A stretch of DNA of 16,663 nt. Origin: a virus (lineage: Duplodnaviria > Heunggongvirae > Uroviricota > Caudoviricetes). The stretch is taken from IMG/VR virus record IMGVR_UViG_2690315994_000023. One strand, 5' to 3'. A model generated the notes under the pieces. The model was not told where the DNA came from and made no database searches. It was given only the letters and a program-made list of their open reading frames with translations. The position numbers were made by a program, and so were the translations under genes. This document shows, in pieces, positions 1 through 15,430 of this stretch. Position 1 is the first letter of the stretch, and each line of letters opens with the position of its first letter.

Positions 1-171
1 TACCGCCGTGAAGGTTACGAATATGATTGCGTGATGCCTGTTTATCAGTTCCGGCGTGATTTTTCTCTGGTACAGACCGCGCCGCATAACGTGCCCACCA
101 GCAACGCCAGGGCACGGGCAAACATCCAGAAGCTGAAAACCATGGTTAACGGATTCAGGGGCAAGAAATGA
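1..171 (+). CDS. 3' end of an upstream ORF (5'-truncated by the window edge), hypothetical protein
   Basis: Frame 1 is open from position 1 to TGA at 169..171, and the stop overlaps the ATG of the next gene (ATGA at 168..171). It is under 60 aa so absent from the ORF track. The second island has an analogous small ORF coupled to its replicase (11592..11873). Confidence 0.35.
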   Translation, partial: YRREGYEYDCVMPVYQFRRDFSLVQTAPHNVPTSNARARANIQKLKTMVNGFRGKK

Positions 172-740
172 AAAGCGCACCGAACTTAAAAAAACAGCCT
201 TACGACAAGATGACCGAAGTCATTATTTTTGCGGGTAGTGATGCCTGGGCACATGCGAAACAGTGGCAGGAACAGGACGGGCGACTGGCTGGCGATAATG
301 TGCCTCCCGTTGTGCTGGCTGATGATCAACTGGATGAACTGGCAGACCTGAGAATCATCGACGAGGGGCGCTATTGTGTCCGGCTGTACAAGGCAGGCCA
401 CATCAGGCCATCAAATATTAATGCCATTGCGCACAAGCTGGCGGCGGCGGGTGTAACTGATGCGAATTATTACCCCGAAGGGATGCACAGCCATATGCGG
501 GAGAACTGGCGCGAATACCTGGAACGGGTGCGCGGGAAAGAGCCGGCGGAAGAAAAAAACCACCAGCGAAAAACCACGCTACCGATGAGCGTTGGATCTA
601 CCGGATACGACACGCAACTGGATTACGTGGTTAAGGGGATTATTCCGGCGGTATCGCTATGCAGCATATACGGGGCTAGCGGGTCCTATAAATCATTCCT
701 TGCCGGATCGTGGGCGTGCCATGTTGCCACTGGTCGCTAG
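168..740 (+). CDS. Replication initiator, N-terminal part: conserved N-domain plus Walker A P-loop, ending at an in-frame TAG
   Basis: The first ~105 aa align with the N-terminus of the replicase at 11857..13545 (shared FAGSDAW, HAK, AGD..PPV, QLD.L..LRIID.GR, KLA.AGV). The ORF ends just after a P-loop-like IYGASGSYKSFLAG motif, at TAG 738..740. Confidence 0.75.
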   Translation: MKSAPNLKKQPYDKMTEVIIFAGSDAWAHAKQWQEQDGRLAGDNVPPVVLADDQLDELADLRIIDEGRYCVRLYKAGHIRPSNINAIAHKLAAAGVTDANYYPEGMHSHMRENWREYLERVRGKEPAEEKNHQRKTTLPMSVGSTGYDTQLDYVVKGIIPAVSLCSIYGASGSYKSFLAGSWACHVATGR

Positions 741-779
741 TGGGGAGGCCGCAGGGTTGCACATGGTGCGGTTCTCTAT

Positions 780-1568
780 GTGGTTGGTGAAGGCGGTATA
801 GGTGTTCCGCGTCGTGTAAAAGCCTGGGAGGTTGTGCACGATGAGCAGGTGAAAAATCTGTATCTGGTAAACCGCCCCATCTTTCCGGCTGCCCCGCTTG
901 ATGTTGATGAAATGGTTATCGCTGCCCGTCAGGTGGAGCGGGAAACGGGTAAACCTGTACGCATGATTATTCTGGATACGCTGGCGCGTTGCTTTGGTGG
1001 GAATGATGAAAATGATTCCCGTGATATGGGGGCGTTTATCCGTGGTTGTGACGAACTGAAACGACGCACAGGGGCCACGGTGCTGGTGGTTCACCATTCC
1101 GGCAAGGATGAGACGAAAGGCGCGCGCGGTTCCAGTGCATTTCGTGCTTCGCTGGATGCTGAATACCGGATACGCAGGGAGGACGCAGGAAGCGAAGCGC
1201 TGGTTATCTCATGCACCAAAATGAAGGACGCGGAGGAACTCAAAGAAGCCGCATATGACTTACGCGTGGTGGAGCTTTTTACCGACGCTGACGGTGAATT
1301 AATCACGTCGCTGGTGGTGGTGGATGATCCGCGCCCTCCTGTTGAACTGGAGCGCATCGAGGAGGCAGGGAACAAGACGGAAAACCATACCGCGCTATGG
1401 GGATGCATACGTTCACGCACACAGCACGGCGACAAGTGCACGATCCCGCTGTTACGTGACGATATGAAAAAGCTGGGGTATGACACAAAACACCTTAAAC
1501 GATGGTTAGCCAAACTGGAAAAAGACGACGTGATCTACATTGACGGTGATGATGTAGGACCACTGTAA
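780..1568 (+). CDS. Replication initiator, C-terminal part: RepA/DnaB-like RecA-fold ATPase core
   Basis: It is in the same frame as 168..740 (both starts are 0 mod 3). Read-through gives ...ACHVATGR-TAG-WGGRRVAHGAVLYVVGEGG..., the layout expected after Walker A in RepA-like helicases. VLVVHHSGKDETKGARGSSAFRASLD resembles the conserved helicase core. The GTG at 780 has no Shine-Dalgarno, so it is probably not an independent gene. Confidence 0.7.
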   Translation: MVGEGGIGVPRRVKAWEVVHDEQVKNLYLVNRPIFPAAPLDVDEMVIAARQVERETGKPVRMIILDTLARCFGGNDENDSRDMGAFIRGCDELKRRTGATVLVVHHSGKDETKGARGSSAFRASLDAEYRIRREDAGSEALVISCTKMKDAEELKEAAYDLRVVELFTDADGELITSLVVVDDPRPPVELERIEEAGNKTENHTALWGCIRSRTQHGDKCTIPLLRDDMKKLGYDTKHLKRWLAKLEKDDVIYIDGDDVGPL

Positions 1569-1569
1569 A

Positions 1570-1767
1570 AAGTGGGCATTAAAAGTGGGAAAGGTGGGCG
1601 ATTTAACGGAATTTTAACAAAATTACCCACTTTCCCACGTGTATATATCCCAAAAAGTGGGCACTAAAAAAATACCTATGAAACAAGATGATATAAATCC
1701 CAAATTTCCCACGTTGGACGAAGTGGGAAAACGTAAAAAGTGGGCGAAAAAAGTGGGTAGAGGTGGG
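1570..1767. repeat. Iteron array, putative origin of replication of island 1
   Basis: Eleven copies of a 7-bp core. AAGTGGG or AGGTGGG sits at 1570, 1583, 1592, 1655, 1721, 1738, 1751 and 1761. Its reverse complement CCCACTT or CCCACGT sits at 1626, 1634 and 1708. An A/T-rich stretch (1601..1625) lies between the clusters, directly downstream of the replicase. Confidence 0.6.
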
Positions 1768-1770
1768 CAA

Positions 1771-2022
1771 ATGACTCAAAAACACAGAGACAGAACAGAG
1801 CCAAAATATAAAGCGTTAGACATGACAGAGCACGCCTTAAAGGTGGCAATCAGAACGATAGACCGCCACGCGGGGGAAGGATACGCGAAAGCACATCCCG
1901 AACTGATAAGCGCATTCATGACCACGACGGCGGCAAATTTTGCCACGCTGACAGAGCGGGAGATTGCGGAAGCTGAACAGGTGACAACCATCAACGTTAA
2001 AACCGGAGAGGTGGAATCATGA
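1771..2022 (+). CDS. Hypothetical protein (83 aa), translationally coupled to ssb
   Basis: ATG at 1771 is preceded by GAGGTGGG (Shine-Dalgarno-like). The track ORF 1639..2022 extends upstream through the iterons, and that extension is probably not coding. The stop overlaps the ssb start (ATGA at 2019..2022). Confidence 0.45.
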   Translation: MTQKHRDRTEPKYKALDMTEHALKVAIRTIDRHAGEGYAKAHPELISAFMTTTAANFATLTEREIAEAEQVTTINVKTGEVES

Positions 2023-2429
2023 CAGCACAGATAGCAGCTTACGGGCGGCTGGTGGACGACCCGCAGGTAAAACAGACCAGCAAGGGCACACCAATGACGC
2101 TGGCACGTATGGCGGTATCGTTGCCATGTAGTCAGGCGCAGGATGGGCAGGCTACGTTATGGCTATCGGTCATCGCATTTGGTAAGCAGGCCGACTTCCT
2201 GGCTAAACATCAAAAAGGCGATGTTGCCAGCGTATCCGGCACGATGCAGGTCAGCCAGTGGACCGGACAGAACGGGGAAACGCGGCAGGGTTATCAGGTT
2301 ATTGCAGACAGCGTAATCAGTGCCCGTGCGGCACGTCCTGGCGGGAACAGACGCAAAACCACAGGCACACAGGGTAATCAGCCACCAGCGGGAGGCGATG
2401 ACCCTTACGGTGACGGTATTCCGTTCTGA
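2019..2429 (+). CDS. ssb: Single-stranded DNA-binding protein (SSB, OB-fold)
   Basis: The OB-fold region (LWLSVIAFGKQADFLAKHQKGDVASVSGTMQVSQWTGQNGETRQGYQVIADSV) parallels the bacterial SSB core. It is followed by a Gly/Pro/Gln-rich linker and an acidic tail ending DDPYGDGIPF, matching the SSB C-terminal D-D-D-I-P-F type tip. Confidence 0.85.
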   Translation: MTAQIAAYGRLVDDPQVKQTSKGTPMTLARMAVSLPCSQAQDGQATLWLSVIAFGKQADFLAKHQKGDVASVSGTMQVSQWTGQNGETRQGYQVIADSVISARAARPGGNRRKTTGTQGNQPPAGGDDPYGDGIPF

Positions 2430-2439
2430 GGGGGTGGCG

Positions 2440-2712
2440 ATGGTACATGACCGCATAGCGGAAGAACTCGAGGCGAAAGGCTTTTACCGGAGGGCGGCGG
2501 CGCGATGGGGTGAAGTCATGCTGCTGGTGGAGACAGACAAGGAACGGCATCAGGTTACGATGCGACGGCTGGAATGTTCCAGGAAGGCACAGAAGCCACC
2601 GGAGCCGCCGGATAACTTCGGAGACCTGAGAAAGGCAGTAGATCGCACTTATGCTGAAATGGGTATAGATGGTGTAAGCGATGAAATATGGCGAAATTAC
2701 CAGGACAGATAA
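2440..2712 (+). CDS. PerC-family small transcriptional regulator (probable)
   Basis: A 90-aa protein starting at ATG 2440 (Shine-Dalgarno GAGGGGGTGG). The N-terminal IAEELEAKGFYRRAAARWGEVM matches, from memory, the PerC-family signature (AE.LE.KG..RRAA.RW). The track ORF 2320..2712 is an upstream extension overlapping ssb. Confidence 0.5.
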   Translation: MVHDRIAEELEAKGFYRRAAARWGEVMLLVETDKERHQVTMRRLECSRKAQKPPEPPDNFGDLRKAVDRTYAEMGIDGVSDEIWRNYQDR

Positions 2713-2718
2713 TCACAC

Positions 2719-2741
2719 AGCCGGAGCAATCCGGCTTTTTG
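2719..2741 (+). terminator. Rho-independent terminator after the PerC-like gene
   Basis: AGCCGGA-gcaa-TCCGGCT hairpin followed by TTTTTG. Confidence 0.7.
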
Positions 2742-2860
2742 TCATGTTTTGTAAATTATTTGTTCGTGGTTGTTCCACGTTGCTCGCTGACCGGAACGGC
2801 ATATTTTACCCGACCTGAATCATGATTATTCTCGCCCGTGGTGCCAGGACGCTGGGGCCA

Positions 2861-2910
2861 TTTTCCCGCCTGTTAATGTGCTCGCCAATATTCATTACCA
2901 GGCGGGAAAA
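2861..2910. promoter_or_regulatory. Perfect 12-bp inverted repeat (TTTTCCCGCCTG ... CAGGCGGGAAAA) with 26-bp spacer, upstream of the capsid gene
   Basis: Arms at 2861..2872 and 2899..2910 are exact reverse complements. The repeat lies in the ~285-bp leader between the PerC-like gene and the capsid operon. It has T upstream and A downstream on both strands, so it is not a terminator. Confidence 0.4.
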
Positions 2911-2999
2911 CGATCGGTGCGATTACTGATTTCCTTATGAAAAACGGTTGAGTGTTTGCCGCGTCCTGGAGTTCCTTACTTAACCCCAGGACTTTTTTT

Positions 3000-4157
3000 A
3001 TGCCGAGAATAATCGAATTACGCCAGCAGAAAACCGCCATTAAAAATCAGATGCGCGACATGCTGGAGAACGCGGAAAAAGAAAACCGCAGTCTTAACGA
3101 TGCTGAGGGCGCAAAATTTGACGAATTACGCGCTAAAGCTGAATCCCTCGATAAAGACATTTCCCGCCTTGAAGCCATTGCAGACGAAGAGCGCAGCAAG
3201 CCAGGTAAAAGCAGCCAGACCACTGACCCCGCAGAATTACGCAACTACATTCTGACAGGTGAAACCCGCGCATTAAGTACAGGCGTTCCCGCTGATGGTG
3301 GTTATACCGTTATCCCCGAACTGAACACCGAAATCATGCGAATGCTGACGGATGAATCCACCATGCGCCGCATCTGTACCGTGAAGAAAATCAGCAGCAA
3401 CGAGTTTAAGCAGCTTGTTTCCGCTGGCGGTGCGACCGTTAACCACGGTGAAGAGGGTAAGACACGCGAACAGACCAGCACCCCGCAGATTAACGAGGTG
3501 AGCATTAAGCTGTATCCGGTCTATGCGTACCCGCGCACCACACAGGAAATCGTGGATTTTTCCGATGTGGACATCCTTTCATGGCTGACGGGTGAGATTG
3601 GCGACACCTTCACGGAAACCGAAGAAAGCGATCTGGTTGTGGGCGACGGTGACAAAAAAGCAAAAGGCTTTTTATCCGTACCCCGTGCAGAGAAGAACGA
3701 CAAAGAGCGTGATTTTGGTACGTTACAGGTAATTAAACCTTCCGAATCTCTGGCGTGGACATCTGCGGACCCGCTGATCGACCTGAAATTTGCATTACAT
3801 AAAAAATACCGCAAAAACGCGGTCTGGGTGGTTAACTCCACGACGGCCGCAAAACTTCAGAAGGTGAAGAACGCGAACGGTGATTACATCTGGCGCGACC
3901 GTTTACAGGCGGGTGATCCTGATACGTTGCTGGGCCTTCCGGTCGAATATCTGGAGTTTATGCCTGATAACGTTATTGCCCTGGGTGACTTCAAACGCGG
4001 TTACTACATTGTTGATCACGAAACAGGTGTTCGCACCAGACCGGACAACCTCACAGAGCCGGGCTTCATCAAAATTTTCACGCAGAAATATTTAGGCGGT
4101 GGCGTGGTGGATTCGAACGCGATCAAGATTCTGGAACTGCCACAGGACGACGATTAA
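3000..4157 (+). CDS. Major capsid protein, HK97 family, with N-terminal scaffold-like delta domain
   Basis: ATG at 3000 with AGGA 8 nt upstream. The N-terminal ~100 aa are coiled-coil and charged (IIELRQQKTAIKNQMRDMLENAEKENRSLNDAEGAKFDELRAKAESL), typical of the HK97 delta domain. Length and C-terminal region fit the HK97 capsid fold. Context is protease and portal immediately downstream. Confidence 0.88.
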   Translation: MPRIIELRQQKTAIKNQMRDMLENAEKENRSLNDAEGAKFDELRAKAESLDKDISRLEAIADEERSKPGKSSQTTDPAELRNYILTGETRALSTGVPADGGYTVIPELNTEIMRMLTDESTMRRICTVKKISSNEFKQLVSAGGATVNHGEEGKTREQTSTPQINEVSIKLYPVYAYPRTTQEIVDFSDVDILSWLTGEIGDTFTETEESDLVVGDGDKKAKGFLSVPRAEKNDKERDFGTLQVIKPSESLAWTSADPLIDLKFALHKKYRKNAVWVVNSTTAAKLQKVKNANGDYIWRDRLQAGDPDTLLGLPVEYLEFMPDNVIALGDFKRGYYIVDHETGVRTRPDNLTEPGFIKIFTQKYLGGGVVDSNAIKILELPQDDD

Positions 4158-4167
4158 CAGCATACAG

Positions 4168-4188
4168 AAGGGGCTTAAAAGCCCCTTT
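4168..4188 (+). terminator. Hairpin plus T-run between capsid and protease genes (possible attenuator)
   Basis: AAGGGGC-ttaaaa-GCCCCTT followed by TAGTGTTTT. Confidence 0.4.
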
Positions 4189-4211
4189 AGTGTTTTATGG
4201 GTGAAAAAATT

Positions 4212-4769
4212 ATGAAGAGTATGGAAATCCGGTCATCGGAAATCACCACCAGCGCCAGCAACACGCTTACAGGCTACGTTGTTCGCTGGGATAACCTTTC
4301 AGAGCTGCTATGGGGGGAGTTTTACGAAAAATTCCAGCGGGGAGCGTTTACTGAATGGCTTGCAGCGGGTAATGACGTTCGCGGCCTGTATGAGCATGAC
4401 CACAGCATGTTACTGGGGCGCACCCGTTCCGGCACGCTGAAACTGGAAGAGGACGACACAGGGTTACGCTTTGAACTGACCCCACCGGATACCAGTACAG
4501 GGCGGGACGTTATCGAACTGGTTAAACGAGGTGATATATCCGGCATGAGCTTTGGCTTTCGCTCCCGTAAGGATGTATGGGATACCACAACAGATCCATG
4601 CGTGCGCACCGTGCTGGTGGCGGAACTGTACGAAATTACCGTTACATCCGTACCGGCTTACCCTGATTCCGGCGTGGAGCTGGCCCGCCGCTCCCTGTAC
4701 GAGCAGCACCCCGAAAAAATGCCGCGTGCGGATAATCGCCGCTGGTGGGCGGATTTAGCGGGGGTGTGA
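4212..4769 (+). CDS. Prohead maturation protease, HK97 family
   Basis: Motifs GYVVRWDN, LYEHD, LGRTRSGTLKLEEDDTGLRFE, GDISGMSFGF and ELYEITVTSVPAYPDS fit HK97-type prohead proteases. ATG 4212 has GGTGA upstream; the alternative ATG at 4197 has no ribosome binding site. Confidence 0.85.
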   Translation: MKSMEIRSSEITTSASNTLTGYVVRWDNLSELLWGEFYEKFQRGAFTEWLAAGNDVRGLYEHDHSMLLGRTRSGTLKLEEDDTGLRFELTPPDTSTGRDVIELVKRGDISGMSFGFRSRKDVWDTTTDPCVRTVLVAELYEITVTSVPAYPDSGVELARRSLYEQHPEKMPRADNRRWWADLAGV

Positions 4770-4770
4770 T

Positions 4771-5982
4771 ATGTGGCCTTTCAGAAGAAAAAAAGAGCAG
4801 CGCAGCATGACGCTTGATGAGTTTATGGCGCTGGCCGGCACATCGAACACGGGGGCGGGTGAGTACGTATCATCGGGGACAGCGGAATCACTGCCCGCCG
4901 TCATGAACGCCGTGACGGTCATCTCTGAGGCGGTGGCTACCATGCCGTGTTACCTGTACCTGGTACGCAATGAGAAGGGGAAGGAGGCCCGCGAGTGGCT
5001 TGATTCTCATCCGGTCGATCACATCCTCAACGAGCGCCCGAACGCGTGGCAAACCCCCTACCAGTTTAAGCGAATGATGATCCGCCACTGCCTGTTAAAC
5101 GGTAATGCTTATGCGGTGATTCGGTGGGGGCGTGATGGTTTTCCGGTGGCTTTACATCCTTACCCGCCGCAGTCGGTGAACGTGGAGCAGACAGGTGAGC
5201 ATAACTGGCGCTACTGCATCACTGACGCCTACACCGGAAACACCCGCAACTATTTACCGTGGGAGGTTCTCCACCTTCGTTACTCCACGGATGACGGTTT
5301 TATGGGGCGCTCACCTGTAACCATCTGCCGCGAATCGCTGGGGCTTGGGCTGGCCCAACAACGCCACGGCGCGAGCGTGATGCGTGATGGCATGATGGCG
5401 GCAGGGGTTATCACGTCAGGCGAATGGCTGGACGGCGTGAAGGGCAAACAGGCATTAGCCGCACTGGAACGCTACAAAGGGGCCAGAAACGCCGGAAAAA
5501 CGCCCATCCTTGAAGGGGGTATGAGCTATCAGCAGCTGGGCATGAGTAATCAGGATGCTGAATGGCTGGCCTCCCGTCGCTTCACCATTGAAGACATCGC
5601 CCGAATGTTCAACGTCTCGCCGATTTTTTTGCAGGAATACAGCAACAGCACCTACAGCAATTTCAGCGAGGCAAGCCGCGCATTTCTCACCATGACGATG
5701 CGCCCGTGGCTGGCGAACTTTGAGCAGCAGATAAAAAACGCCCTGCTGGTGGCCTCACCTGTACCTGGTATCCGGTATCAGGTGGAGTTTGACAGCGCGG
5801 ACCTGTTACGGGCCACACCTGGCGAACGCTTTGCCACCTATGAACGCGGCATCAAATCCGGCGTTATGTGCCCGAACGAAGCCCGCGAACGTGAAGGGCT
5901 GTCCCCGCGTGATGGTGGTGATGAGTTCAGCCAGGCATGGAAACAGGAAGTAAAAATCAGCGAGGGAGAAAAACCGGAATGA
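4771..5982 (+). CDS. Portal protein, HK97 family
   Basis: A 403-aa protein starting 2 nt after the protease stop. Its length, composition and position in the head module fit phage portal proteins. Confidence 0.85.
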   Translation: MWPFRRKKEQRSMTLDEFMALAGTSNTGAGEYVSSGTAESLPAVMNAVTVISEAVATMPCYLYLVRNEKGKEAREWLDSHPVDHILNERPNAWQTPYQFKRMMIRHCLLNGNAYAVIRWGRDGFPVALHPYPPQSVNVEQTGEHNWRYCITDAYTGNTRNYLPWEVLHLRYSTDDGFMGRSPVTICRESLGLGLAQQRHGASVMRDGMMAAGVITSGEWLDGVKGKQALAALERYKGARNAGKTPILEGGMSYQQLGMSNQDAEWLASRRFTIEDIARMFNVSPIFLQEYSNSTYSNFSEASRAFLTMTMRPWLANFEQQIKNALLVASPVPGIRYQVEFDSADLLRATPGERFATYERGIKSGVMCPNEAREREGLSPRDGGDEFSQAWKQEVKISEGEKPE

Positions 5983-6317
5983 ACATAGGGCGACTGCGTG
6001 ACAGGGTAACGATTCAGACCCTGAAACAGACCAGGGATATAACCGGCGAAATACTCGAAACGTGGGTGGACGGTCACACACTCTGGGCAAGCGTGAACAT
6101 GATCAGCAGCAAGGAGGCCATTTCATCGGGTGCAGAACTGGCGACTGGAACGGTAAGGATATGGATACGCTACAGGAAGGACATCAACGCCACCAGCCGG
6201 ATAAAGGTCAATACGGGGCCGCTGGCGGGGCGTGTACTGAATATCATCGGGCAGCCGCTGCCGGATGCCGCCAGGACACGCCTTGAAATTCTTTGTCGTG
6301 AGGGCGCGGAAAAATGA
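5979..6317 (+). CDS. Head-closure / head-tail joining protein (SPP1 gp16-like)
   Basis: ATG overlaps the portal stop (ATGA). A ~112-aa protein with RDRVTIQ ... GTVRIWIRYRKDI ... RVLNIIG motifs typical of phage head-tail joining proteins. Confidence 0.7.
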   Translation: MNIGRLRDRVTIQTLKQTRDITGEILETWVDGHTLWASVNMISSKEAISSGAELATGTVRIWIRYRKDINATSRIKVNTGPLAGRVLNIIGQPLPDAARTRLEILCREGAEK

Positions 6318-6610
6318 CAGAAGAACTTATCACCCTGGAAGAAGTGAAACTCCATTGCCGCATCGATGGCGACGAGGAAGACCAGTTAATCAGCGGATAC
6401 ATTGCCGCATCGCTTGAGGCGTGCCAGATACATATAGGCAGGCGCTTTGATGACGGGCTGGAGTTCACGCCAGCCATAAAGATTGGCTGCATGATGTTTA
6501 TCGCTCACCTGTACGAGAATCGCCAGCTGGTAGCGGATAACGCAAAAACGCGCGTACCCATGACGATTGGCGCGCTCTGGACGGCTTACCGTGATGTGGG
6601 GGTGTACTGA
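6314..6610 (+). CDS. Head-tail connector / DNA-packaging adaptor (gp6-like)
   Basis: ATG overlaps the previous stop. The N-terminal LITLEEVKLHCRIDGDEEDQLI and the IAHLYENR motif match gp6-like head-tail connector proteins. Confidence 0.7.
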   Translation: MTEELITLEEVKLHCRIDGDEEDQLISGYIAASLEACQIHIGRRFDDGLEFTPAIKIGCMMFIAHLYENRQLVADNAKTRVPMTIGALWTAYRDVGVY

Positions 6611-7050
6611 TGCCGTGGCAACCATTAAGACGATGCACAGAACCAGGCTGTAACAGGCGCGTGAAGTCCGGCAAGTGTGAGGAGCACAGGCGGGCGGCAT
6701 GGCGTGCAGAGGATGCCAGACGAGGACACCGCCGCGCGCGTGGGTACTCCAGACAGTGGGACAAATACCGCGCCATGTATCTGAGTAAAAACCCGTTATG
6801 CGTGCGATGCCTTGAGAAGGGGATATATACGCCCGCCGTGGTGGTGGATCACATTATCCCGATTAATGGCGGTGATGATGTTCTCTTCTGGCCCGAATGG
6901 AACCATCAACCATTGTGCCAGGCGTGTCATAACCAGAAAACGAAATGGCTTGATCCGGCAACAAAAAGCAAGCGTGCCGCAGGTGGATTTCATGAAGAGG
7001 AAGAACGGGCCGCTAACCGCAATAACTGGATGTATGACGCTGATGAATGA
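6610..7050 (+). CDS. HNH endonuclease (phage packaging-associated)
   Basis: Cys-rich zinc-binding motifs (CTEPGC..., CVRC) and the HNH signature VDHIIP ... NHQPLCQACHNQKT. It sits immediately upstream of terS/terL, as in cos-type HK97-like phages. Confidence 0.85.
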   Translation: MPWQPLRRCTEPGCNRRVKSGKCEEHRRAAWRAEDARRGHRRARGYSRQWDKYRAMYLSKNPLCVRCLEKGIYTPAVVVDHIIPINGGDDVLFWPEWNHQPLCQACHNQKTKWLDPATKSKRAAGGFHEEEERAANRNNWMYDADE

Positions 7051-7216
7051 GCGGGAACAAAACCGCCTTATCCGTGGACTTATAAGGCAGCGTGACGCAT
7101 GGAAGACACAGGAAACAGGGCATAAAGATAAAGCGTCAGGACGCGCAGAACGCATCACAGCGAAGCGATTAACCGACCGTGACCGCGAGGTTATGGAATG
7201 TTTCCGCAATCGCTGA
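7034..7216 (+). CDS. Hypothetical small basic protein (about 60 aa)
   Basis: ATG at 7034 (or 7043) in a frame overlapping the HNH 3' end. The track ORF 6812..7216 is an implausible upstream extension inside HNH. Confidence 0.3.
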   Translation: MTLMNEREQNRLIRGLIRQRDAWKTQETGHKDKASGRAERITAKRLTDRDREVMECFRNR

Positions 7217-7227
7217 TGAGGCTGTAT

Positions 7228-7272
7228 GACGGGGTGGGGGGCGTTTTCAGGACAAACCCGACCCCGCCGGGC
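7228..7272. other. Candidate cos / terminase recognition region (G-run and C-run imperfect dyad)
   Basis: GACGGGGTGGGGGGCG, a 13-bp spacer, then CCCGACCCCGCCGGGC, in the only sizeable intergenic gap between HNH and terS. Confidence 0.25.
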
Positions 7273-7339
7273 ACCGAACGCCTCCTCAAATTTTTATGCA
7301 CGGGAATTTTTTGAAAAATAATCTGGCGAAAAAATAAGC

Positions 7340-7696
7340 ATGGCAAGACCACCGAAAGCCCCCGCCTACCTGGATGATATCGCCGTGAAGCAGTGGCGGG
7401 AAAAATCGCGGCAGCTTGCGGAACGGGGAGACCTTACCCCCGCCGACTGGAGTAATCTGGAACTGTATTGTGTCAACTACTCCATTTACCGGAAAGCCGT
7501 TGCAGACCTTGCGGCGCGCGGGTTCAGCATTGTTAACAGTCAGGGCGGCGAGAGCAGAAACCCCGCATTAAGCGCAAAATCCGACGCTGAAAGAGTGATG
7601 ATAAAAATGGCCTCCTTGCTCGGTTTTGACCCGATAAGCCGCCGTAAAAATCCACCGGAAACAGAAGAAGAGGACGAGCTTGACCGCCTGGAATAA
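7340..7696 (+). CDS. terS: Terminase small subunit, P27 family
   Basis: A 118-aa protein directly upstream of and overlapping terL. The N-terminal PKAPAYLDDIAVKQWREKSRQLAERGDLTPADWSNLELYCVNYSIYRKA matches P27-family small terminases. Confidence 0.75.
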   Translation: MARPPKAPAYLDDIAVKQWREKSRQLAERGDLTPADWSNLELYCVNYSIYRKAVADLAARGFSIVNSQGGESRNPALSAKSDAERVMIKMASLLGFDPISRRKNPPETEEEDELDRLE

Positions 7697-9341
7697 GTAC
7701 GCAGAAGACGTAAAAACGGGCAAAATTCCGGCCTGTAAACGGCTGAAACAGGCCGTTAAACGGTACTTTTCGGACCTTGAAAGCCCCCTTTACACGTTCG
7801 ATCGTGAGGTTGTGGAGCGGTTTATTGCCTTTTCCAGGGTGTGCCCGCACGTAAAAGGCGCAATGCGCGGTAGCCCCATTGAGCTGGAGCCGTGGCAGCA
7901 GTTCGCCTTTGCGTGCATCCTCGGCTTTAAGGTTAAGGCCACCGGACGGCGCAAATACACGAGCGCCTTTATCGAAGTGCCGCGCAAAAATGCGAAATCC
8001 ACGACCGCCGCGATTCTGGCTAACTGGTTTTTGATTATGGAGAACGGTCAGCAGGATATCTACACCGCAGCGGTGAGCCGTGACCAGGCGCGGATCGTCT
8101 TTGATGATGCGCGTCAGATGTGCCTTTTATCCCGACCGTTACGCAGGCGGGTGAATATTCAGGCGCATAAGGTGATACACCCGAAAAGCAACAGCCTGTT
8201 AAAGCCGCTGGCAGCAAAAGCGGCAACCATTGAAGGTACAAACCCGAGTCTTGCCATTGTGGATGAATATCACCTGCACCCTGACAACGGGGTTTATTCC
8301 GCGCTTGAACTGGGAATGGGGGCGCGTCCGGAGGGGCTGTTATTTGCCATCACCACATCGGGGAGCAACGTTGTTTCAGCCTGTAAACAACACTACGACT
8401 ATTGCTGCCAGATACTGGATGGTGAAGAGGTGAACGAATCCATGTTCGTGCTGATTTACGAGCTGGATGATGAAAGCGAGGTTGACGATCCGGCGATGTG
8501 GATAAAGGCGAATCCAAATATCGATGTTTCCGTCGATCGTGAAAAACTGGCCTCAACCATCCAGAAAGCGCGGGGTATTCCGTCGCAGTGGGTGGAAATG
8601 CTCACCAAGCGATTCAATATCTGGTGTCAGGGGGCTACGCCGTGGATGGGTAACGGTGCATGGGCGGAGTGCGCCGGAACGTTCACGGAGGAAGATTTAC
8701 ACGGCCAGGAGTGTTACGCGGGGCTGGATTTATCATCCACAAGCGATATTTCCAGCGTGTGCTATGCCTTTCCGGTCGGTAAAACCATTATGCTGGTTTC
8801 CCGTCATTATCTGCCGGAGTTCCAGCTACAGAACCCCGCCAATAAAAACCGCGCTGTCTATCGTCAGTGGGCTAAAGCGGGCTGGATACGCACAACGCCT
8901 GGCGACTGCATTGATTACGACCGGATCAGAGATGACATCATGCAGGACGCGGAGAAATTTAATATCAGGCTGGTGGGCTTTGATACGTGGAACGCCACGC
9001 ATCTCAGAACGCAATTACAGGGGGCAGGTTTTGAGGTGGAGCCGTTCCCGCAAACCTACCTCAGATTCAGTCCGGCGGCGAAATCGTTCGAAGTTTTTGT
9101 TAACCGCAGGGTGATTGTGCATCGTGGCGATCCGGTGTTGTCCTGGTCGATGAGTAACGTTGTGATGCAGAGTGACGCGAACGCCAATATCAAGCCGAAC
9201 AAGAAAAAATCACCGAACAAGATAGACCCGAGCGTGGCGGCACTGATGGCGTTTGGCACATTCCAGGCAGAGCATGAGGATTTTGAATTCGATATGAGCG
9301 ATAGCCATAAGCAGCGACTTGCCGAATTTACCGGGATTTGA
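7680..9341 (+). CDS. terL: Terminase large subunit
   Basis: A 553-aa protein with a Walker A-like segment (EVPRKNAKST), a Walker B-like stretch (LAIVDEYH) and a C-terminal nuclease-like region. The start is uncertain: TTG at 7680, overlapping the terS 3' end. Confidence 0.88.
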   Translation: MTAWNKYAEDVKTGKIPACKRLKQAVKRYFSDLESPLYTFDREVVERFIAFSRVCPHVKGAMRGSPIELEPWQQFAFACILGFKVKATGRRKYTSAFIEVPRKNAKSTTAAILANWFLIMENGQQDIYTAAVSRDQARIVFDDARQMCLLSRPLRRRVNIQAHKVIHPKSNSLLKPLAAKAATIEGTNPSLAIVDEYHLHPDNGVYSALELGMGARPEGLLFAITTSGSNVVSACKQHYDYCCQILDGEEVNESMFVLIYELDDESEVDDPAMWIKANPNIDVSVDREKLASTIQKARGIPSQWVEMLTKRFNIWCQGATPWMGNGAWAECAGTFTEEDLHGQECYAGLDLSSTSDISSVCYAFPVGKTIMLVSRHYLPEFQLQNPANKNRAVYRQWAKAGWIRTTPGDCIDYDRIRDDIMQDAEKFNIRLVGFDTWNATHLRTQLQGAGFEVEPFPQTYLRFSPAAKSFEVFVNRRVIVHRGDPVLSWSMSNVVMQSDANANIKPNKKKSPNKIDPSVAALMAFGTFQAEHEDFEFDMSDSHKQRLAEFTGI

Positions 9342-9662: not shown

Positions 9663-9873
9663 TTTAATCAAGCAGTTAGCTAAATTGAATTAGTTCATGC
9701 CGTATTGTAAAATACAGAGTCATTATACGTAATTTATTATCACTCTAGATAATTTGTATTCATCATAAATAATTGATGCAGAACGAGATATTTATTTTTT
9801 ATTGGCTCGCATTGTATCATCAGTTATCAGTTACTCCCTGCATACAGTTGTCAAAAAGGTTGTCATTAACTCT

Positions 9874-11109
9874 ATGGCCGAAAATAAACTCTCAGATGTT
9901 CAATTGCGTGCGTTAACCCGCAAAGTCATCGAAAAACCTTTTGATGTTGCTGACGGTGGCAGCCTTTCTGTTCGCGTTACACCATCAAGGCGCAAAATCC
10001 TTGATGGCGAGAAGAGACCGGCCAATAACATCCAATGGTTGTTCCGTTATAAGAATAAGCATAAAAGCGCCAATACTTTGACGCTAGTGCTGGGCAAGTA
10101 TCCTGCCTTATCTCTTGCTGAGGCGAGGGTGAAACGCGACCAATGCAAACGGTGGCTTGCTCATAATCTAGATCCTAAAGACCAGTTTGACCAAGAGTCA
10201 GCAAAAACCATGAAACCTGTCACTATCAGGGAAGCATTGGAACGCTGGATTAATGAGTACGCGGCGGAAAACCGGGTCAACTTTGAAAGGCATAGACGCC
10301 AATTCGAAAGACATATTTATCCTTTCATCGGCGAATTGCCACTTGAACAGTGCTCTAAAGCAAGATGGATGGAGACATTTAGCAGAATCAAAAAAGTCGC
10401 GCCGGTAGCAAGCGGCTACATATTAGGTAACTGCAAGCAGGCGTTGATTCACAACCGCAGGCTGCACGATGTTTACAGTGATGCGCTGGAGGATATCAAA
10501 GTTACTGATGTTGGAAGAAAGCAGGCAAAACGTGATCGTGTTTTAACTTCTGAAGAACTTAGTGGCCTTTGGAATGCGCTAAAAAGCGAATATGCGTTTC
10601 TACCTTACTACACCGCGCTTTTAAAATTGCTAATAGTGTTTGGTGCAAGAACACAAGAAATTCGTCTTTCGACATGGTCGGAATGGAACGTGAAAGAATG
10701 GATTTGGACAGTTCCGCGAGAACATAGCAAGGGTGGGGAGAAAATCATCAGACCCGTGCCTGAATCTATACAGCCATTTATTTTACAGCTACGCCAAAAT
10801 CATCTTGATAGCGGAATGCTGCTTGGTGAAATGAAGAAACCCGAAGCTGTCAGCCAGTGGGGGCGTATCTTATACAGGCGATTAGAGCATTCAACGCCGT
10901 GGACGTTGCATGACCTGCGCCGCACTTTTGCCACCAGTCTAAATAACTTGGGGATAGCCCCGCATGTGGTTGAACAGTTGCTGGGCCACTCAATGCCAGG
11001 AGTGATGGCGGTGTACAACCGTAGCCAGTACATCCCGGAAAAACGGTTAGCCTTGGACAAATGGATAAAATATTTAGAAAAAATAAACCTTTTAAAATCA
11101 GATAATTAA
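9874..11109 (+). CDS. int: Tyrosine recombinase / integrase, P4 type
   Basis: An N-terminal arm-binding-like region (LSVRVTPSRRKILDGEKRPANNIQWLFRY) and a C-terminal catalytic region with HDLRRTFATSL and LLGHS...AVYNRSQY (tyrosine nucleophile). ATG 9874 is preferred over the track's TTG at 9802. Confidence 0.88.
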   Translation: MAENKLSDVQLRALTRKVIEKPFDVADGGSLSVRVTPSRRKILDGEKRPANNIQWLFRYKNKHKSANTLTLVLGKYPALSLAEARVKRDQCKRWLAHNLDPKDQFDQESAKTMKPVTIREALERWINEYAAENRVNFERHRRQFERHIYPFIGELPLEQCSKARWMETFSRIKKVAPVASGYILGNCKQALIHNRRLHDVYSDALEDIKVTDVGRKQAKRDRVLTSEELSGLWNALKSEYAFLPYYTALLKLLIVFGARTQEIRLSTWSEWNVKEWIWTVPREHSKGGEKIIRPVPESIQPFILQLRQNHLDSGMLLGEMKKPEAVSQWGRILYRRLEHSTPWTLHDLRRTFATSLNNLGIAPHVVEQLLGHSMPGVMAVYNRSQYIPEKRLALDKWIKYLEKINLLKSDN

Positions 11110-11403: not shown

Positions 11404-11583
11404 ATGGAATTACTGACTGCTAAGCAAGTCACAACACTAACAACATTATCCCGCATGACTATCTGGCGCTATATCCAGGCTGGCACGTTTCCTAATTGCA
11501 TAAAATTAGGGCCAAAACGCGTGGCCTGGCGGCGCAAAGATGTTATGGCGTGGCTTGAAAGCCGCCAGCCAGTACAGCGCTGA
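11404..11583 (+). CDS. alpA: AlpA-family (MerR-like HTH) prophage transcriptional regulator
   Basis: A 59-aa ORF, below the track cutoff. LLTAKQVTTLTTLSRMTIWRYIQAGTFPNCIKLGPKRVAWRRKDVMAWLESRQ matches the AlpA helix-turn-helix pattern. It sits directly downstream of int, as in P4-like elements and PICIs. Confidence 0.8.
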   Translation: MELLTAKQVTTLTTLSRMTIWRYIQAGTFPNCIKLGPKRVAWRRKDVMAWLESRQPVQR

Positions 11584-11591
11584 GGTGGCTT

Positions 11592-11873
11592 ATGAAGAAA
11601 ACAACCGTAAATCAGGCTATCAGTCGCTATAACAGCCTGTTGCGTAACCCACAGCGCCAGTTAACCGTTGGCGAACTTACCGCCCAGCGTATGGCGGCAG
11701 CACAATTATTGTTGCAAGCATGCATTCGCGAAGGTGTAAACCGCCCGTGGACTATTGTTTCACGTCACGCCGCTATGGCTGATAGCCTGGTGCCGTTTCG
11801 CATCAGCGATTCTGAATCATGGGCGATGTATCTGGAGTTAAAACGCGGGGTGCGATATGAGAAACGCGCCTAA
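11592..11873 (+). CDS. Hypothetical protein (93 aa), translationally coupled to replicase 2
   Basis: ATG 11592 follows the GAGGTGG Shine-Dalgarno, and the 3' end overlaps the replicase start by 17 nt. Confidence 0.5.
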   Translation: MKKTTVNQAISRYNSLLRNPQRQLTVGELTAQRMAAAQLLLQACIREGVNRPWTIVSRHAAMADSLVPFRISDSESWAMYLELKRGVRYEKRA

Positions 11874-13545
11874 CGTTAAGCTATTACCTAAAGACCCTTT
11901 TACGGAAGCAATTATTTTTGCCGGTTCTGACGCTTGGAGCCATGCCAAGGGCTGGGAAGAAGGAATGGGTAAACAAGTTGCCGGTGACACTACTCCTCCT
12001 GTCTATCTTGGGCCAAGACAACTGGATGATTTAGATAATCTACGAATTATCGACGATGGTCGCCGGTCTGCGCGGGTATATCTGGCTGGTGATATTAAGC
12101 AACTTCAAATCAGCACTATTGCTGACAAGCTGGCAGTGGCTGGAGTTAAGGAAGCCCGTTTATTTAAAGGCATTACTGACCGTGAACCGGAAAAATGGAA
12201 CATGGACAGGCTTAGAGACGCCGCCCTACGCGGTGAAAGCCTGGTGGGCATGCTGCGCAAAGAAGAACGAGCAACCGCCGCAGCAACTGTAAAAGACATT
12301 CACGATATGGCTCCTGTATTAATGACAACCTGGCCAAATATTGGAAGCAATGGCCAGCCTTTAAACACACGCCCTAATGTTGAACGTCTATTAGATAACT
12401 ACAGCATTTCTGCAAAATATAATGAGATTAGCAAGGACGTTGAGGTTTTAGTACCTGGCGTTAGTGGCGGTTCAGATGCTCGCGATAACTGCGCTGTGAG
12501 TGAAATTTTAAGCCTCGCCGCACTGAACCGGTTACCAATGAGTAATATTGAAGGTCATATCAAAACTATCGCTGTGCGCAATACTTATAATCCTGTCAGG
12601 GATTTCATCAATCAACGTGAATGGGATGGACGAAGCCGATTTGCAGACCTGCTGAATACTATCAGCACGCCAGATGACTACAGTCGCGATCTGCTGGCCA
12701 TGCTGGTGCGTCGTTGGTTGCTGTCTGCCGTGGCGGCTGCTTACTTAGAAGCGGGTTTCTGGTCCAAAGGCGTGCTGGTTTTCCAGGGCGAGCAGTCACT
12801 GGGTAAAACAGCATGGTTTAAAGCGCTTCTGCCCCCTGACAATCGCAACCTGGTTAAGGTGGGAGCAACTATTGACCCCGGCAATAAAGACAGCGTGGCC
12901 AGCGCAATTAGTCACTGGCTTGTTGAGCTAGGCGAATTGGATGCGACGTTTCGCAAGGCGGATATTGCCAAGCTCAAAGCATTTATCAGCCAGGACCGTG
13001 ATGACCTGCGCCGCCCTTATGACCGGCTTGAATCGAAGTACCAGCGCCGCACCGTGTTTTTTGCGTCAGTGAACCCGAAACACTTCCTGGCGGATGACAC
13101 CGGGAACGTGCGCTGGTGGACCATTCCTGTAACTGCCGTTAACTACGAGCATGGCATAGACACACAACAATTATGGGCCGAAGTTCTTTCCTGGTTTGAA
13201 GCAGGTGAACGCTGGTGGCTGGATCGTGATGAAGAAGCCATGCTGGAAGTAGTGAACGAACAGCACGGGCAAACTGACCCGATTGAAGAAATGATATTGG
13301 CGCGTTTTGATTGGAACAGTGATCGCCTGGCTGCATATATAGAAATGACTGCAACGGATGTTCTGTTGTCTATTGGGCAGGATCGGCCAACAAAATCCCA
13401 GGCAACGCAGTGCGGTAACATTCTGCGAAAACTGACTGGAAGGGATGCACGTAGAACAAGTAAAGGGCGTTTTTACCTAATGCCACCGAAAGTTTTTGGA
13501 CAGCAAGACCATAGCTATTTTGATGGGCCTAACCGCCAGTTTTGA
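11857..13545 (+). CDS. Replication initiator: conserved N-domain + P4-alpha/VirE-like P-loop NTPase (primase-helicase type)
   Basis: The N-terminal ~105 aa are homologous to those of ORF 168..740. The central and C-terminal part has Walker A GEQSLGKTAWFKAL and downstream motifs (LVELGELD, RTVFFASVNP) of the P4-alpha / D5 / VirE-type superfamily-3-like NTPase found in satellite primases. Confidence 0.8.
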   Translation: MRNAPNVKLLPKDPFTEAIIFAGSDAWSHAKGWEEGMGKQVAGDTTPPVYLGPRQLDDLDNLRIIDDGRRSARVYLAGDIKQLQISTIADKLAVAGVKEARLFKGITDREPEKWNMDRLRDAALRGESLVGMLRKEERATAAATVKDIHDMAPVLMTTWPNIGSNGQPLNTRPNVERLLDNYSISAKYNEISKDVEVLVPGVSGGSDARDNCAVSEILSLAALNRLPMSNIEGHIKTIAVRNTYNPVRDFINQREWDGRSRFADLLNTISTPDDYSRDLLAMLVRRWLLSAVAAAYLEAGFWSKGVLVFQGEQSLGKTAWFKALLPPDNRNLVKVGATIDPGNKDSVASAISHWLVELGELDATFRKADIAKLKAFISQDRDDLRRPYDRLESKYQRRTVFFASVNPKHFLADDTGNVRWWTIPVTAVNYEHGIDTQQLWAEVLSWFEAGERWWLDRDEEAMLEVVNEQHGQTDPIEEMILARFDWNSDRLAAYIEMTATDVLLSIGQDRPTKSQATQCGNILRKLTGRDARRTSKGRFYLMPPKVFGQQDHSYFDGPNRQF

Positions 13546-13554
13546 GGTGATACT

Positions 13555-13779
13555 ATGAGTTATCGCGTATATATCATTGCTTTTGACCCGGAACACGGCA
13601 CCTACACCGAAACCGAAATCATGGAAGGTTTCGCCACTGAACAGGAAGCGGTAGACCATGCTCGCAATAGGCTGCCAGAGGTGCAGCAGGAACTGGCCAA
13701 GTTGGGTGAAAACCTGCTATGCAGCTACCGCATAAGGGTAGTGGATTCCGCTGAAATCTTGCCGTTTCTCCGCTCATAA
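13555..13779 (+). CDS. Hypothetical protein (74 aa)
   Basis: ATG 13555 follows the GAGGTGA Shine-Dalgarno, and a terminator lies downstream. Confidence 0.45.
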   Translation: MSYRVYIIAFDPEHGTYTETEIMEGFATEQEAVDHARNRLPEVQQELAKLGENLLCSYRIRVVDSAEILPFLRS

Positions 13780-13802
13780 TATCACAACGGTTGTTACCCA
13801 TT

Positions 13803-13834
13803 GCCCTGGCGAATGCCGGGGCTTTTTTTATTTT
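13803..13834 (+). terminator. Rho-independent terminator
   Basis: GCCCTGGC-gaat-GCCGGGGC hairpin followed by TTTTTTTATTTT. Confidence 0.7.
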
Positions 13835-13848
13835 CAAAGTGACGCCTA

Positions 13849-14151
13849 GGTGTCATTAATTTATAAGGTGTCATGGTAGGTGTCATTGTTCTCAAGCCAT
13901 AACCCGCAAGGGTTGCGACATTACTAATGACACCTATGACACCTATGACAGCATTTTTAAAGAAAATAACGACCACTGTAATAATGTAACAGTGGTCGTT
14001 ATACTTTATAGAAATGGGTGTCATGGTGTCACAGGTGTCATTCATTACAGTATCTTGTTTGTATTTTTCTTTAATAATCAGCGTGTTTCCCGCTATGACA
14101 CCTAATGACACCTTTCCAACATAACGCCGTCATGGTGACATTAGGTGTCAT
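13849..14151. repeat. Iteron array, putative origin of replication of island 2
   Basis: GGTGTCAT at 13849, 13867, 13879, 14017, 14034 and 14144. Its reverse complement ATGACACC at 13927, 13936, 14095 and 14105. Variants GGTGTCAC at 14025, GGTGACAT at 14134, and a partial at 13945. The array has an AT-rich centre. Confidence 0.65.
13966..14002. repeat. Perfect 14-bp inverted repeat (ATAACGACCACTGT / ACAGTGGTCGTTAT) with 9-bp AT spacer, at the centre of the iteron array
   Basis: Exact reverse-complement arms at 13966..13979 and 13989..14002. Confidence 0.6.
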
Positions 14152-14545
14152 CGCCATCTGCTGCCAAAAAAGTCAAGGTACTTCCGAGGGGGGTACAGCC
14201 TGCGGGGGCATTGGTCCCGCGTAATTCGCGTTGTGCGTGCCCCTACAAAACTCACTTTATGATTACGTCAAGTAAATCAATCATTTATGTGAATCCTATC
14301 AAAGCACTGGAACCATAATTGCGAGATTGCAAAATAAAGCGAACACGTTTTACACACGCTGAATTGTAAAGATGTGTAAATATCGATTACGCCGGATTAT
14401 GCCTGGTTATTTGCAAGTATTCATGGTTATAAGTTACTGATTTTACATTAAAAAGCTCACATTGTGGCTATTGTGTTCGGCCTGGTTACTGTATATCTTT
14501 AAGTCATTCCAGACGATTTATTGCACAACAACCGGAGCATTTTTA

Positions 14546-15430
14546 ATGAACGTTTTATCTCAACTTATCAACGACGCGTTGAACCACCAGGGCGGCCACA
14601 TTCGCACTGATGGCAACGGTGACATTACTCAATTCATCCCTGTGGAACCTGCAGCAGTTCGCTACCTGTCCATGAATGACGTGCTGACCCCGAAAGGCGG
14701 CAAGCAGACCACCTTCAACGCTGTTCTGGCTGAACGTTCACTGGTGGCACAGGCAGGCGCTGAAATCATCCGCATCCCTGGCCCGATGACCACGCCTCCG
14801 ACTGGCAACACCGGCGCAACGACTGGCCGCGAAGTGGCTGACCGCTTCGTTGTCGTTCGCCCTGGTGCGTTCGCCAAAGTGGCTGACGGCGAAGAAATCA
14901 CCATGAGCGGCCTGCCTTACCTGGTATCAGCGTTCAACCACAACAACGCACCGGCTTACGGCGTGGGCTACACCCTTAGCCGCAAGCAGATGAAACACGA
15001 CTTCGCAGACGATACCACGCTGGAAGTGGTCAACACCGCCATTGAACGCGGAATTGCTGACCTGGCTGATTTCGTACTGCTGAACCACCTGGAAACCGCA
15101 GCGGAAACGCTGGCCAGCCCGTCATTCACCGCAGTGGCGCAGAAGATTGCAGCCAAAAACCTGCGCTTTGATGAAGTTAAAGCCATTGTTGGCGGTGATT
15201 GCACCGGCCTGGAACTGCAAGACGGCGTTCTGCGTGCCTACGGTGTACGCGCTGAAATCAGCGGCCAGACTTCCAGCACAATCATTGGCGCTTTCGGCAA
15301 TGCAGCCGTTGCCCTGGATGATGAAATCCGCGTCACCGCCCGCCGCGTGCTGAATGGTGCCGTTGAAATCGTTGTGTGGGTGAACGCATCCGCACTGGTG
15401 CCTGACTCAACTATGTTCTGGAAGGCTTGA
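14546..15430 (+). CDS. Hypothetical protein (294 aa), Ala/Gly/Thr-rich, strongly optimised codon usage
   Basis: ATG 14546 has GGAG 7 nt upstream. Codon choice is heavily biased (CTG, CGC/CGT, GGC, ACC, AAC, TTC, GAA), unlike neighbouring genes. It has no signal peptide and no recognisable catalytic motif. Confidence 0.6.
   Translation: MNVLSQLINDALNHQGGHIRTDGNGDITQFIPVEPAAVRYLSMNDVLTPKGGKQTTFNAVLAERSLVAQAGAEIIRIPGPMTTPPTGNTGATTGREVADRFVVVRPGAFAKVADGEEITMSGLPYLVSAFNHNNAPAYGVGYTLSRKQMKHDFADDTTLEVVNTAIERGIADLADFVLLNHLETAAETLASPSFTAVAQKIAAKNLRFDEVKAIVGGDCTGLELQDGVLRAYGVRAEISGQTSSTIIGAFGNAAVALDDEIRVTARRVLNGAVEIVVWVNASALVPDSTMFWKA

Follow-up and report, generated by a model that had tools for sequence, protein, structure and literature searches.

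The 16,663-nucleotide stretch of Escherichia coli DNA analysed here (IMG/VR virus record IMGVR_UViG_2690315994_000023, referred to as the window) carries at positions 13849-14151 a dense array of short repeats, located downstream of a gene encoding a 562-aa protein with a VapE domain, Rep (11857..13545, plus strand). This gene belongs to the second of two islands that lie in tandem in the window, and sequence comparison together with analogy to described systems indicates that the array is very probably the replication origin (ori) of that island (island 2), of the type known from phage-inducible chromosomal islands (PICIs) and Staphylococcus aureus pathogenicity islands (SaPIs). Island 2, beside fis, is read as an integrated phage satellite of about 9 kb with the order int-alpA-rep-ori-cos. 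Its tyrosine integrase gene int (9802-11109) and alpA (11404-11583), both on the plus strand, the latter followed by an open reading frame (ORF) of 93 aa, precede rep. Between the rep stop codon and the array, which starts 304 bp further on, there are only an ORF of 74 aa (13555..13779, plus strand), without a family match and with a gene in the same place in the Pantoea, Enterobacter, and Klebsiella relatives, and an intrinsic terminator (13803..13830, plus strand) consisting of an 8-bp GC-rich stem, kept in all relatives, and a T run. The terminator closes the int-alpA-rep operon and the array starts 19 bp after it, so that the position assigned by the original prediction, downstream of the island 2 replicase, is borne out. 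The array occupies part of a 770-bp intergenic region ahead of the next operon, which begins near 14546, and a cos packaging site (14167..14239, plus strand) lies outside the putative origin in the same non-coding module. Gram-negative PICIs are recognised by an integrase, alpA, a replicase, an origin, and a packaging signal in one direction, over approximately 8-12 kb and with a specific att site; in island 2, int, alpA, rep, the array, and cos all follow in this order on the plus strand.

The repeat unit, GGTGTCAT or its complement ATGACACC, occurs 11 times exactly in the window, and 10 of these 11 copies are inside 13849-14151. Dinucleotide-preserving shuffles of the whole window (n = 200) gave a mean of 0.56 copies and a maximum of three, and none of the 200 reached 11. 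When one mismatch was allowed, three further copies appeared in the array, at 13945 on the minus strand (GCTGTCAT), 14025 on the plus strand (GGTGTCAC), and 14134 on the plus strand (GGTGACAT), giving a total of 13, in agreement with the approximately 13 copies in both orientations that had been proposed. The first and the last copy coincide exactly with the reported start and end of the array. The extended consensus of this iteron is (A/T)A-GGTGTCAT, with AGGTGTCAT present in 9 of the 13 copies. The copies form five blocks, with orientations +++ / --- / +++ / -- / ++, over a span of 303 bp and with spacings inside the blocks of 8-18 bp, mostly 8-12 bp. Block I (13849..13886, plus strand) contains three direct copies of GGTGTCAT (13849, 13867, and 13879) spaced by 18 and 12 bp and is kept in relatives. 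Block II (13927..13952, minus strand) contains three copies of ATGACACC at 9-bp spacing (13927, 13936, and 13945, the third being ATGACAGC), and block III (14017..14041, plus strand) contains three of GGTGTCAT spaced by 8 and 9 bp (14017, 14025, and 14034, the middle one being GGTGTCAC); on the basis of sequence, block II is presumed to be the left flank of the core origin and block III, its mirror, the right flank. Block IV (14095..14112, minus strand) consists of two copies of ATGACACC 10 bp apart (14095 and 14105), and block V (14134..14151, plus strand), the least conserved, of GGTGACAT (14134) followed at 10-bp spacing by GGTGTCAT (14144). The array is single, as no second GGTGTCAT cluster was found anywhere in the window. 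Because the sole other repeat cluster in the window consists of seven copies of AAGTGGG at approximately 1450-1900, in island 1, the core of the array is indeed unlike the island 1 repeat, as had been claimed.

Blocks II and III enclose a central AT-rich segment of 64 bp (13953..14016), the presumed melting region, with 27% GC (0.266, compared with 0.51 for the window). A second AT-rich spacer of 53 bp and 32% GC (14042..14094) separates blocks III and IV and includes those 40-bp windows that are poorest in GC (20%) within the region. The exact 14-bp inverted repeat with a 9-bp spacer that the original prediction had placed at the AT-rich centre (13966..14002) was found there, with arms ATAACGACCACTGT (13966-13979) and ACAGTGGTCGTTAT (13989-14002). 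It is the longest perfect inverted repeat of the window, and 40 composition-preserving shuffles gave no more than 11 bp. Together, blocks II and III, the AT-rich arms, and the palindrome form a near-perfect dyad of 117 bp (13926-14042), whose predicted fold as single-stranded DNA has an energy of -39.3 kcal/mol (z = -10.6). Among 21 related arrays, the largest internal gap was AT-rich relative to its own locus in all 21, and a central inverted repeat reached p < 0.05 against shuffles in 7, which is above chance and far from universal; the palindrome was therefore rejected as a universal feature of such origins. Close relatives keep only a ACCACTGT-N-ACAGTGGT core, with the outer positions of the palindrome unpaired, and in Pantoea this position is occupied by another inverted repeat, of 6 bp. 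By this comparison, the perfect 14-bp palindrome is specific to the lineage of the window and not general for this origin type, and it is dispensable for defining the origin. It may aid melting, for example through the formation of a cruciform or hairpin, or bind a dimeric factor.

The protein encoded upstream points to the same type of origin. The sole Pfam match of Rep is a VapE-like domain (E-value 4.5e-48), and a search of PDB sequences returned a single match, 7PDS (SaPI1 Rep; E-value 2e-16, residues 232-476), which is a complex of SaPI1 Rep with DNA (PMC9371898). An AlphaFold (AF2) model built from a 17-sequence alignment, with a mean predicted local distance difference test score (pLDDT) of 69, was used for a fold search, in which the only significant matches were the six chains of 7PDS (E-values 4e-11 to 9e-10), aligned over 470-495 columns with a target of approximately 450 residues. 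The N-terminal module of Rep spans about 150 aa and is followed by an ATPase at approximately 250-475 and a predicted C-terminal winged helix at approximately 484-548; in the model, residues 475-542 have the H-E-H-H-E-E topology of a winged helix, with pLDDT values of 79-86. By sequence and predicted fold, Rep is thus a self-loading helicase/initiator of the VapE family and a homologue of SaPI1 Rep.

Beside fis, islands with the same gene order were found in Pantoea stewartii, Klebsiella michiganensis, and an unassigned relative, with Rep identities of 79-80%, 62%, and 61-62%, respectively, and all of them have a large non-coding gap after rep with a repeat array at the same place. The Pantoea array is composed of GGTGTCAC / ATGACACC in the same layout as in the window, the core in K. 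michiganensis is TGGACCCT, and that of the unassigned relative is GTGCAGAT. More than 20 different iteron cores were observed across relatives, and their relationship to Rep could be followed domain by domain. The Rep proteins P0087 and P0088 have different iterons; they are 95-99% identical through residue 475, and the identity falls to 42% over the C-terminal domain. The window and Pantoea Rep proteins share 59% identity in the N-terminal and 94% in the C-terminal domain, with the same iterons, and the window Rep and P0090 share 12% and 63%, respectively, with a common core GGTGTCA. It follows from these identities that the repeat tracks the C-terminal winged helix; in the sequences compared, the iteron core changes with the C-terminal domain of Rep and not with the N-terminal or ATPase domains. 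An initiator and its binding sites would be expected to co-vary in this way. In an alignment of six GGTGTCAT-type arrays from E. coli, Klebsiella, Enterobacter, an unassigned sample, and Pantoea, 70% of the iteron columns were invariant compared with 46% of the other array columns (Fisher p = 6e-5). Blocks II and III hardly vary, all three block II copies being invariant in the six arrays, and block V is the most eroded.

The association extends to more distant loci. In the related loci L003 and L005, the array lies 42-49 bp after the rep stop codon with no gene between them, and the layout is kept without the 74-aa ORF. A scan of one genome per species yielded 31 further VapE loci in Pseudomonas, Burkholderia, Cupriavidus, Celeribacter, Thauera, Desulfovibrionaceae, Synergistaceae, and others; all were distant VapE loci, with no enterobacterial species representatives among them. 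In most of those with enough 3' sequence (L006-L033), a locus-specific 7-8-mer is repeated 6-11 times in the first 900 bp downstream, compared with at most four copies of any 8-mer in the upstream control regions. In L003, L005, and the distant loci, the array starts 5-85 bp past the stop codon. The five-block layout recurs in most of the approximately 20 distant arrays mapped to scale, with the pattern >>> << gap >> gap << > and spans mostly of 260-320 bp. In the Pseudomonas loci L006 and L008 the iteron is CGTTCACC, which is near the type I iteron of phage P4, TGTTCACC. Two short contigs, L042 (10.6 kb) and L043 (9.4 kb), encode a 692-aa Rep with a different N-terminus and a similar winged helix; L043 carries a GGTGTCA iteron array, and the gap examined in L042 has a single copy. 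A Nu1-type small terminase is encoded past the non-coding gap of L042, and an integrase was called on neither of the two stretches. These contigs may be variant or circular forms of the satellite.

The neighbouring packaging site connects island 2 with Jilinvirus myophages. Positions 14167-14239 match non-coding DNA of these phages, with identities of 98.6% for ECO1230-10 and ep3 and 97.3% for HeidiAbel. In the linear record of Enterobacter phage Arya, the first base corresponds to window position 14201 and lies shortly ahead of terS, and the right end of the record corresponds to the left half of the cos site in the island relatives. The end of the ECOO78 record maps to window position 14217 on the other strand. 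These matches and record ends identify the segment as a cos site of Jilinvirus type, with the cohesive end probably at 14201-14217, about 50 bp downstream of the end of the array. An IHF-like consensus site (14275-14287) forms part of the cos region and lacks significance by itself. The cos site suggests that island 2 is packaged by a Jilinvirus-type helper and names a candidate for it; this is supported indirectly by the 97-99% identity of cos to that of the E. coli phages and by homologues of the phage tape-measure protein and helicase in the island. The last gene of island 2 encodes a PhageMin_Tail tape-measure protein of 698-766 aa (L001 19186-21459, past the end of the window; L002 10807-13107; L003 10669-12765), and over residues 2-492 the E. 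coli island protein shares 68% identity with the tape-measure protein of Arya. It is unusual for a satellite to carry a homologue of the tape-measure protein of its presumptive helper, and no publication was found that links Jilinvirus with satellites. Rep itself is 65% identical to the Arya primase over the helicase and C-terminal domains. Unannotated five-block arrays are present in Arya (L044, 39400-39700, core GGTGAC) and in ECO1230-10 (L046, 28431-28859, core TAGTCCCA). In both phages the array follows the primase-helicase gene at a distance of approximately 2 kb, shortly before the late activator gene, and is probably the phage origin.

The helicase-array module is common to island 2 and this phage lineage, but its specificity is not. 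The layout of the phage arrays is the same, and the Arya core GGTGAC is one base apart from the GGTGTC of the island. However, the phage arrays have distinct cores, are separated from the primase gene by several small genes, and accompany a protein with Toprim domains. A satellite using the origin specificity of its helper was considered, and this possibility was weakened by the finding that GGTGTCAY is not clustered in Arya and that ECO1230-10, with the closest cos, uses TAGTCCCA. No match to the array was obtained by blastn among 50,697 phage records, so that, unlike the neighbouring cos, the array was not copied as DNA from a sequenced phage.

Comparison with published origins places the array among those of PICIs and SaPIs. 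The SaPI Rep proteins are self-loading helicases whose C-terminal winged helix recognises the iterons, and their origins have 6-12 iterons immediately downstream of rep, arranged around an AT-rich centre with two or more per side and in opposite directions, the specificity differing between elements (PMC9371898). The origins of Gram-negative PICIs share this plan, and a rep-ori segment of EcCICFT073 sustains plasmid replication (PMC6092414). Island 2 resembles SaPIbov1, SaPI1, and SaPI5 in encoding a homologous VapE-type Rep with a C-terminal winged helix and in having, in the same position downstream of rep, opposed iterons around an AT-rich centre: three minus copies (13927-13952) and three plus copies (14017-14041) flank 64 bp at 27% GC. 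The location 3' of the initiator gene, the winged-helix Rep with its match to 7PDS, and iterons specific to the Rep allele are further features in common. The island differs from SaPIs in its 13 copies (compared with 6-12), the 303-bp span, the second AT-rich spacer, the 74-aa ORF and terminator between rep and the array, the Gram-negative host, the unidirectional operon of alpA type, and the lack of a recognisable separate or fused primase. EcCICFT073 is an E. coli island of the same int-alpA type with bidirectional repeats right after the replicase gene; its origin sequence comprises 11 GGTAGA repeats, mostly extended to GGTAGA(C/T)A and facing both ways, within the 289 bp that follow pri-rep. 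However, its iteron, att site (ycfD-phoQ compared with yhdJ-fis), and helper type (lambdoid cos) are different, and the remainder of its replicase is unrelated, being annotated as a DNA primase family protein without a VapE match.

Two other classes of origin were rejected. P4 is a cos-packaged satellite with octamer iterons that are read by the C-terminal DNA-binding domain of its helicase-initiator alpha, and island 2 is likewise an enterobacterial phage satellite with octamer iterons and, presumably, cos packaging. P4 needs two separated elements, ori and crr, whereas island 2 has one compact array, and P4 alpha was not recovered as a relative of Rep, for which Pfam returned only VapE and the PDB searches only 7PDS. 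With a Rep of the SaPI Rep (VapE) family, the element cannot be counted among the P4-like ones. The P4 origin is also discussed comparatively in PMC6092414. Iteron plasmids such as pSC101, R6K, RK2, and F similarly have repeats for the initiator beside an AT-rich unwinding element; these repeats are direct and of 17-22 bp, the Rep is of WH1-WH2 type, and DnaA and DnaB-DnaC are needed (PMC4980987). An origin of this kind was dismissed on account of the inverted 8-bp units, a helicase as initiator, and the lack of a DnaA box (with up to one mismatch) in 13849-14151. A scan for IHF sites likewise found none inside the array, and a text search of the literature for the motif returned irrelevant primer matches only.

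Several points weigh against reading the array as the origin of island 2. The iterons are of 8-9 bp compared with 5-6 bp in SaPIs, although the criterion of a short iteron is probably specific to SaPIs, since EcCICFT073, with 11 repeats, mostly has an 8-bp core. The published SaPI plan has two sets of iterons around the AT-rich region, whereas five blocks make the present design more elaborate, and the central palindrome is absent from many related arrays. Rep is devoid of the Toprim primase domains borne by its phage relatives, so that priming must come from the host or a helper. Binding by Rep, melting, loading of a double hexamer, and origin activity are all deduced from homology and co-variation. 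In addition, the array is upstream of an operon and beside cos, and it may therefore have a second, regulatory role.

This last position would also suit an array of operators, at which AlpA, the 74-aa or 93-aa protein, or an autoregulating Rep could control the operon near 14546; the repeats lie within the 770-bp intergenic region preceding it, and weak promoter-like hexamers overlap them, though in a number no greater than in shuffles. We consider this improbable, because the repeat core follows the C-terminal domain of Rep, the L003 and L005 arrays retain their layout where the 74-aa ORF is missing, and an array accompanies the VapE-type gene in Arya, ECO1230-10, and distant taxa with different neighbours; moreover, about 400 bp and the cos site separate the array from the start of the operon. 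A feature that could instead belong to this operon is an 8-bp inverted repeat at 14348-14381 (TTTACACA...TGTGTAAA), followed at 14390-14460 by a stretch conserved with Pantoea (GGATTATGCC..TTATTTGCAAGTATTCA); the two may represent its promoter or operator. The proximity to cos likewise raises the question of whether the repeats are sites for the small terminase, comparable to the R sites of cosB. The cosB of phage lambda has repeated Nu1-binding sites, and a Jilinvirus-type cos follows the end of the array at 50 bp. Against this, relatives with wholly different repeats (TGGACCCT, GTGCAGAT) retain the same type of cos, no such repeats occur on either side of the Arya cos, the phage arrays are more than 2 kb from cos, and the array is on the side of cos opposite to the phage terS, all of which makes a role in packaging very improbable.

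It is hardly credible that the region encodes a product, either a minus-strand protein or a long hairpin RNA. A 105-aa hypothetical protein is annotated in RefSeq on the minus strand (13794..14111), which would favour a coding function, but the ORF reads through the repeats, and its frame is interrupted by stops in all five relatives compared (L041, L040, L037, L039, and L002), one of them with a 97% identical Rep. It was not called by gene callers in the relatives and had no protein family match, so that it is spurious and merely translates the repeats, as the original prediction had put it. The very stable fold of the dyad and the matches to generic miRNA-hairpin models could be taken as signs of an RNA; these matches were the only ones in a permissive E-value scan of Rfam, were far below the threshold, and are explained by the dyad symmetry of the array, whereas at the gathering score Rfam 15 gave no matches in the window. 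Furthermore, blocks I, IV, and V have no pairing partner and are nevertheless conserved as motifs, and a terminator stands before the array. The repeats are consequently part of neither a conserved protein-coding gene nor a known RNA family; membership in a conserved coding or RNA gene had been named as an outcome that would speak against an origin. Taken with the PICI/SaPI organisation, the homology of Rep to SaPI1 Rep, and the co-variation between iterons and Rep, the array as an origin of replication, as first proposed from the sequence, is well supported by these comparisons and analogies.

For an origin of this type, the following course of events could be expected. When the operon is switched on, Rep, as a hexameric helicase of SaPI Rep type, would bind the 8-9-bp iterons by its C-terminal winged helix. 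The duplex would melt in the 64-bp segment flanked by the inverted triplets at 13927-13952 and 14017-14041, where two Rep hexamers could load themselves in opposite orientations and unwind the DNA outwards in both directions. The outer blocks I, IV, and V would probably add cooperative binding. The replicated DNA would then be cut at the neighbouring cos by a helper terminase.

The N-terminal module of Rep follows a different pattern from that of the winged helix. It is conserved between Rep proteins with different iterons, does not co-vary with the iterons, and gave no match in Pfam, NCBIfam, or PDB sequences. The first 115-120 aa or so are 50% identical to the N-terminus of the otherwise unrelated RepA of island 1, and the first 115 aa or so are 47% identical to that of EcCICFT073 pri-rep. 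This module of about 115-120 aa (window 11857-12210 and 168-530; L047 4542-4890; E-values 9e-38 and 2e-27) is common to three otherwise unrelated island replicases, of the VapE type, the RepA/AAA_25 type, and the primase-family type.

The origin plan itself has already been published for PICIs, of which the array is a further member. A broader reading is possible, which we put forward tentatively and regard as rather doubtful: the five-block design, with the pattern >>> << AT >> AT << > over mostly 260-320 bp, might be a previously undescribed, phylum-spanning origin type tied to VapE-winged-helix helicases, and island 2 might represent an undescribed class of cos-type Jilinvirus satellites. 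In that event, the helicase-origin module, the cos, and the tape-measure gene would have been captured by island 2 from the helper lineage. The module of about 115 aa would have replaced the primase domain and, being common to two unrelated enterobacterial PICI replicases, might recruit a primase of the host or helper.

The first island of the window, at bases 1-9307, is a capsid-forming PICI-type island with genes for a RepA-type helicase, SSB, a major capsid protein (2952-4157), a prohead protease, a portal, a head completion protein, an HNH endonuclease, TerS, and TerL. The gene at 7680-9341, taken previously for the island 1 replicase, encodes the large terminase subunit; the helicase of this island, of the RepA type (AAA_25), is encoded at 168-1568. 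Its gene has an in-frame stop at codon 191 (approximately 738-740; ...ATGR*WGGRR...), and the orthologue in E. coli 2013C-4991 is an intact coding sequence of 466 aa, indicating that the helicase is probably inactivated in this strain. Island 2 also occurs alone, as in strain E62, where it lies between yhdJ and fis and measures approximately 9.2 kb. Of 5426 complete E. coli genomes, 49 contained the 1-kb region around the array. Table S1 of PMC6092414 does not list yhdJ-fis as an att site, EcCIMP1 was considered as the same island and proved to be a different one, and no published description was found of this island family beside fis.

These results locate the origin, very probably of PICI/SaPI type, for an uncharacterised island family beside fis in E. 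coli, Klebsiella, Enterobacter, and Pantoea, and correct the spurious protein annotation at 13794-14111 in RefSeq. Because the Jilinvirus-type cos names a candidate helper, the island is experimentally tractable. The natural exchanges of C-terminal domain and iteron among its relatives provide ready pairs for studying how self-loading helicases of the SaPI type would read their origins.

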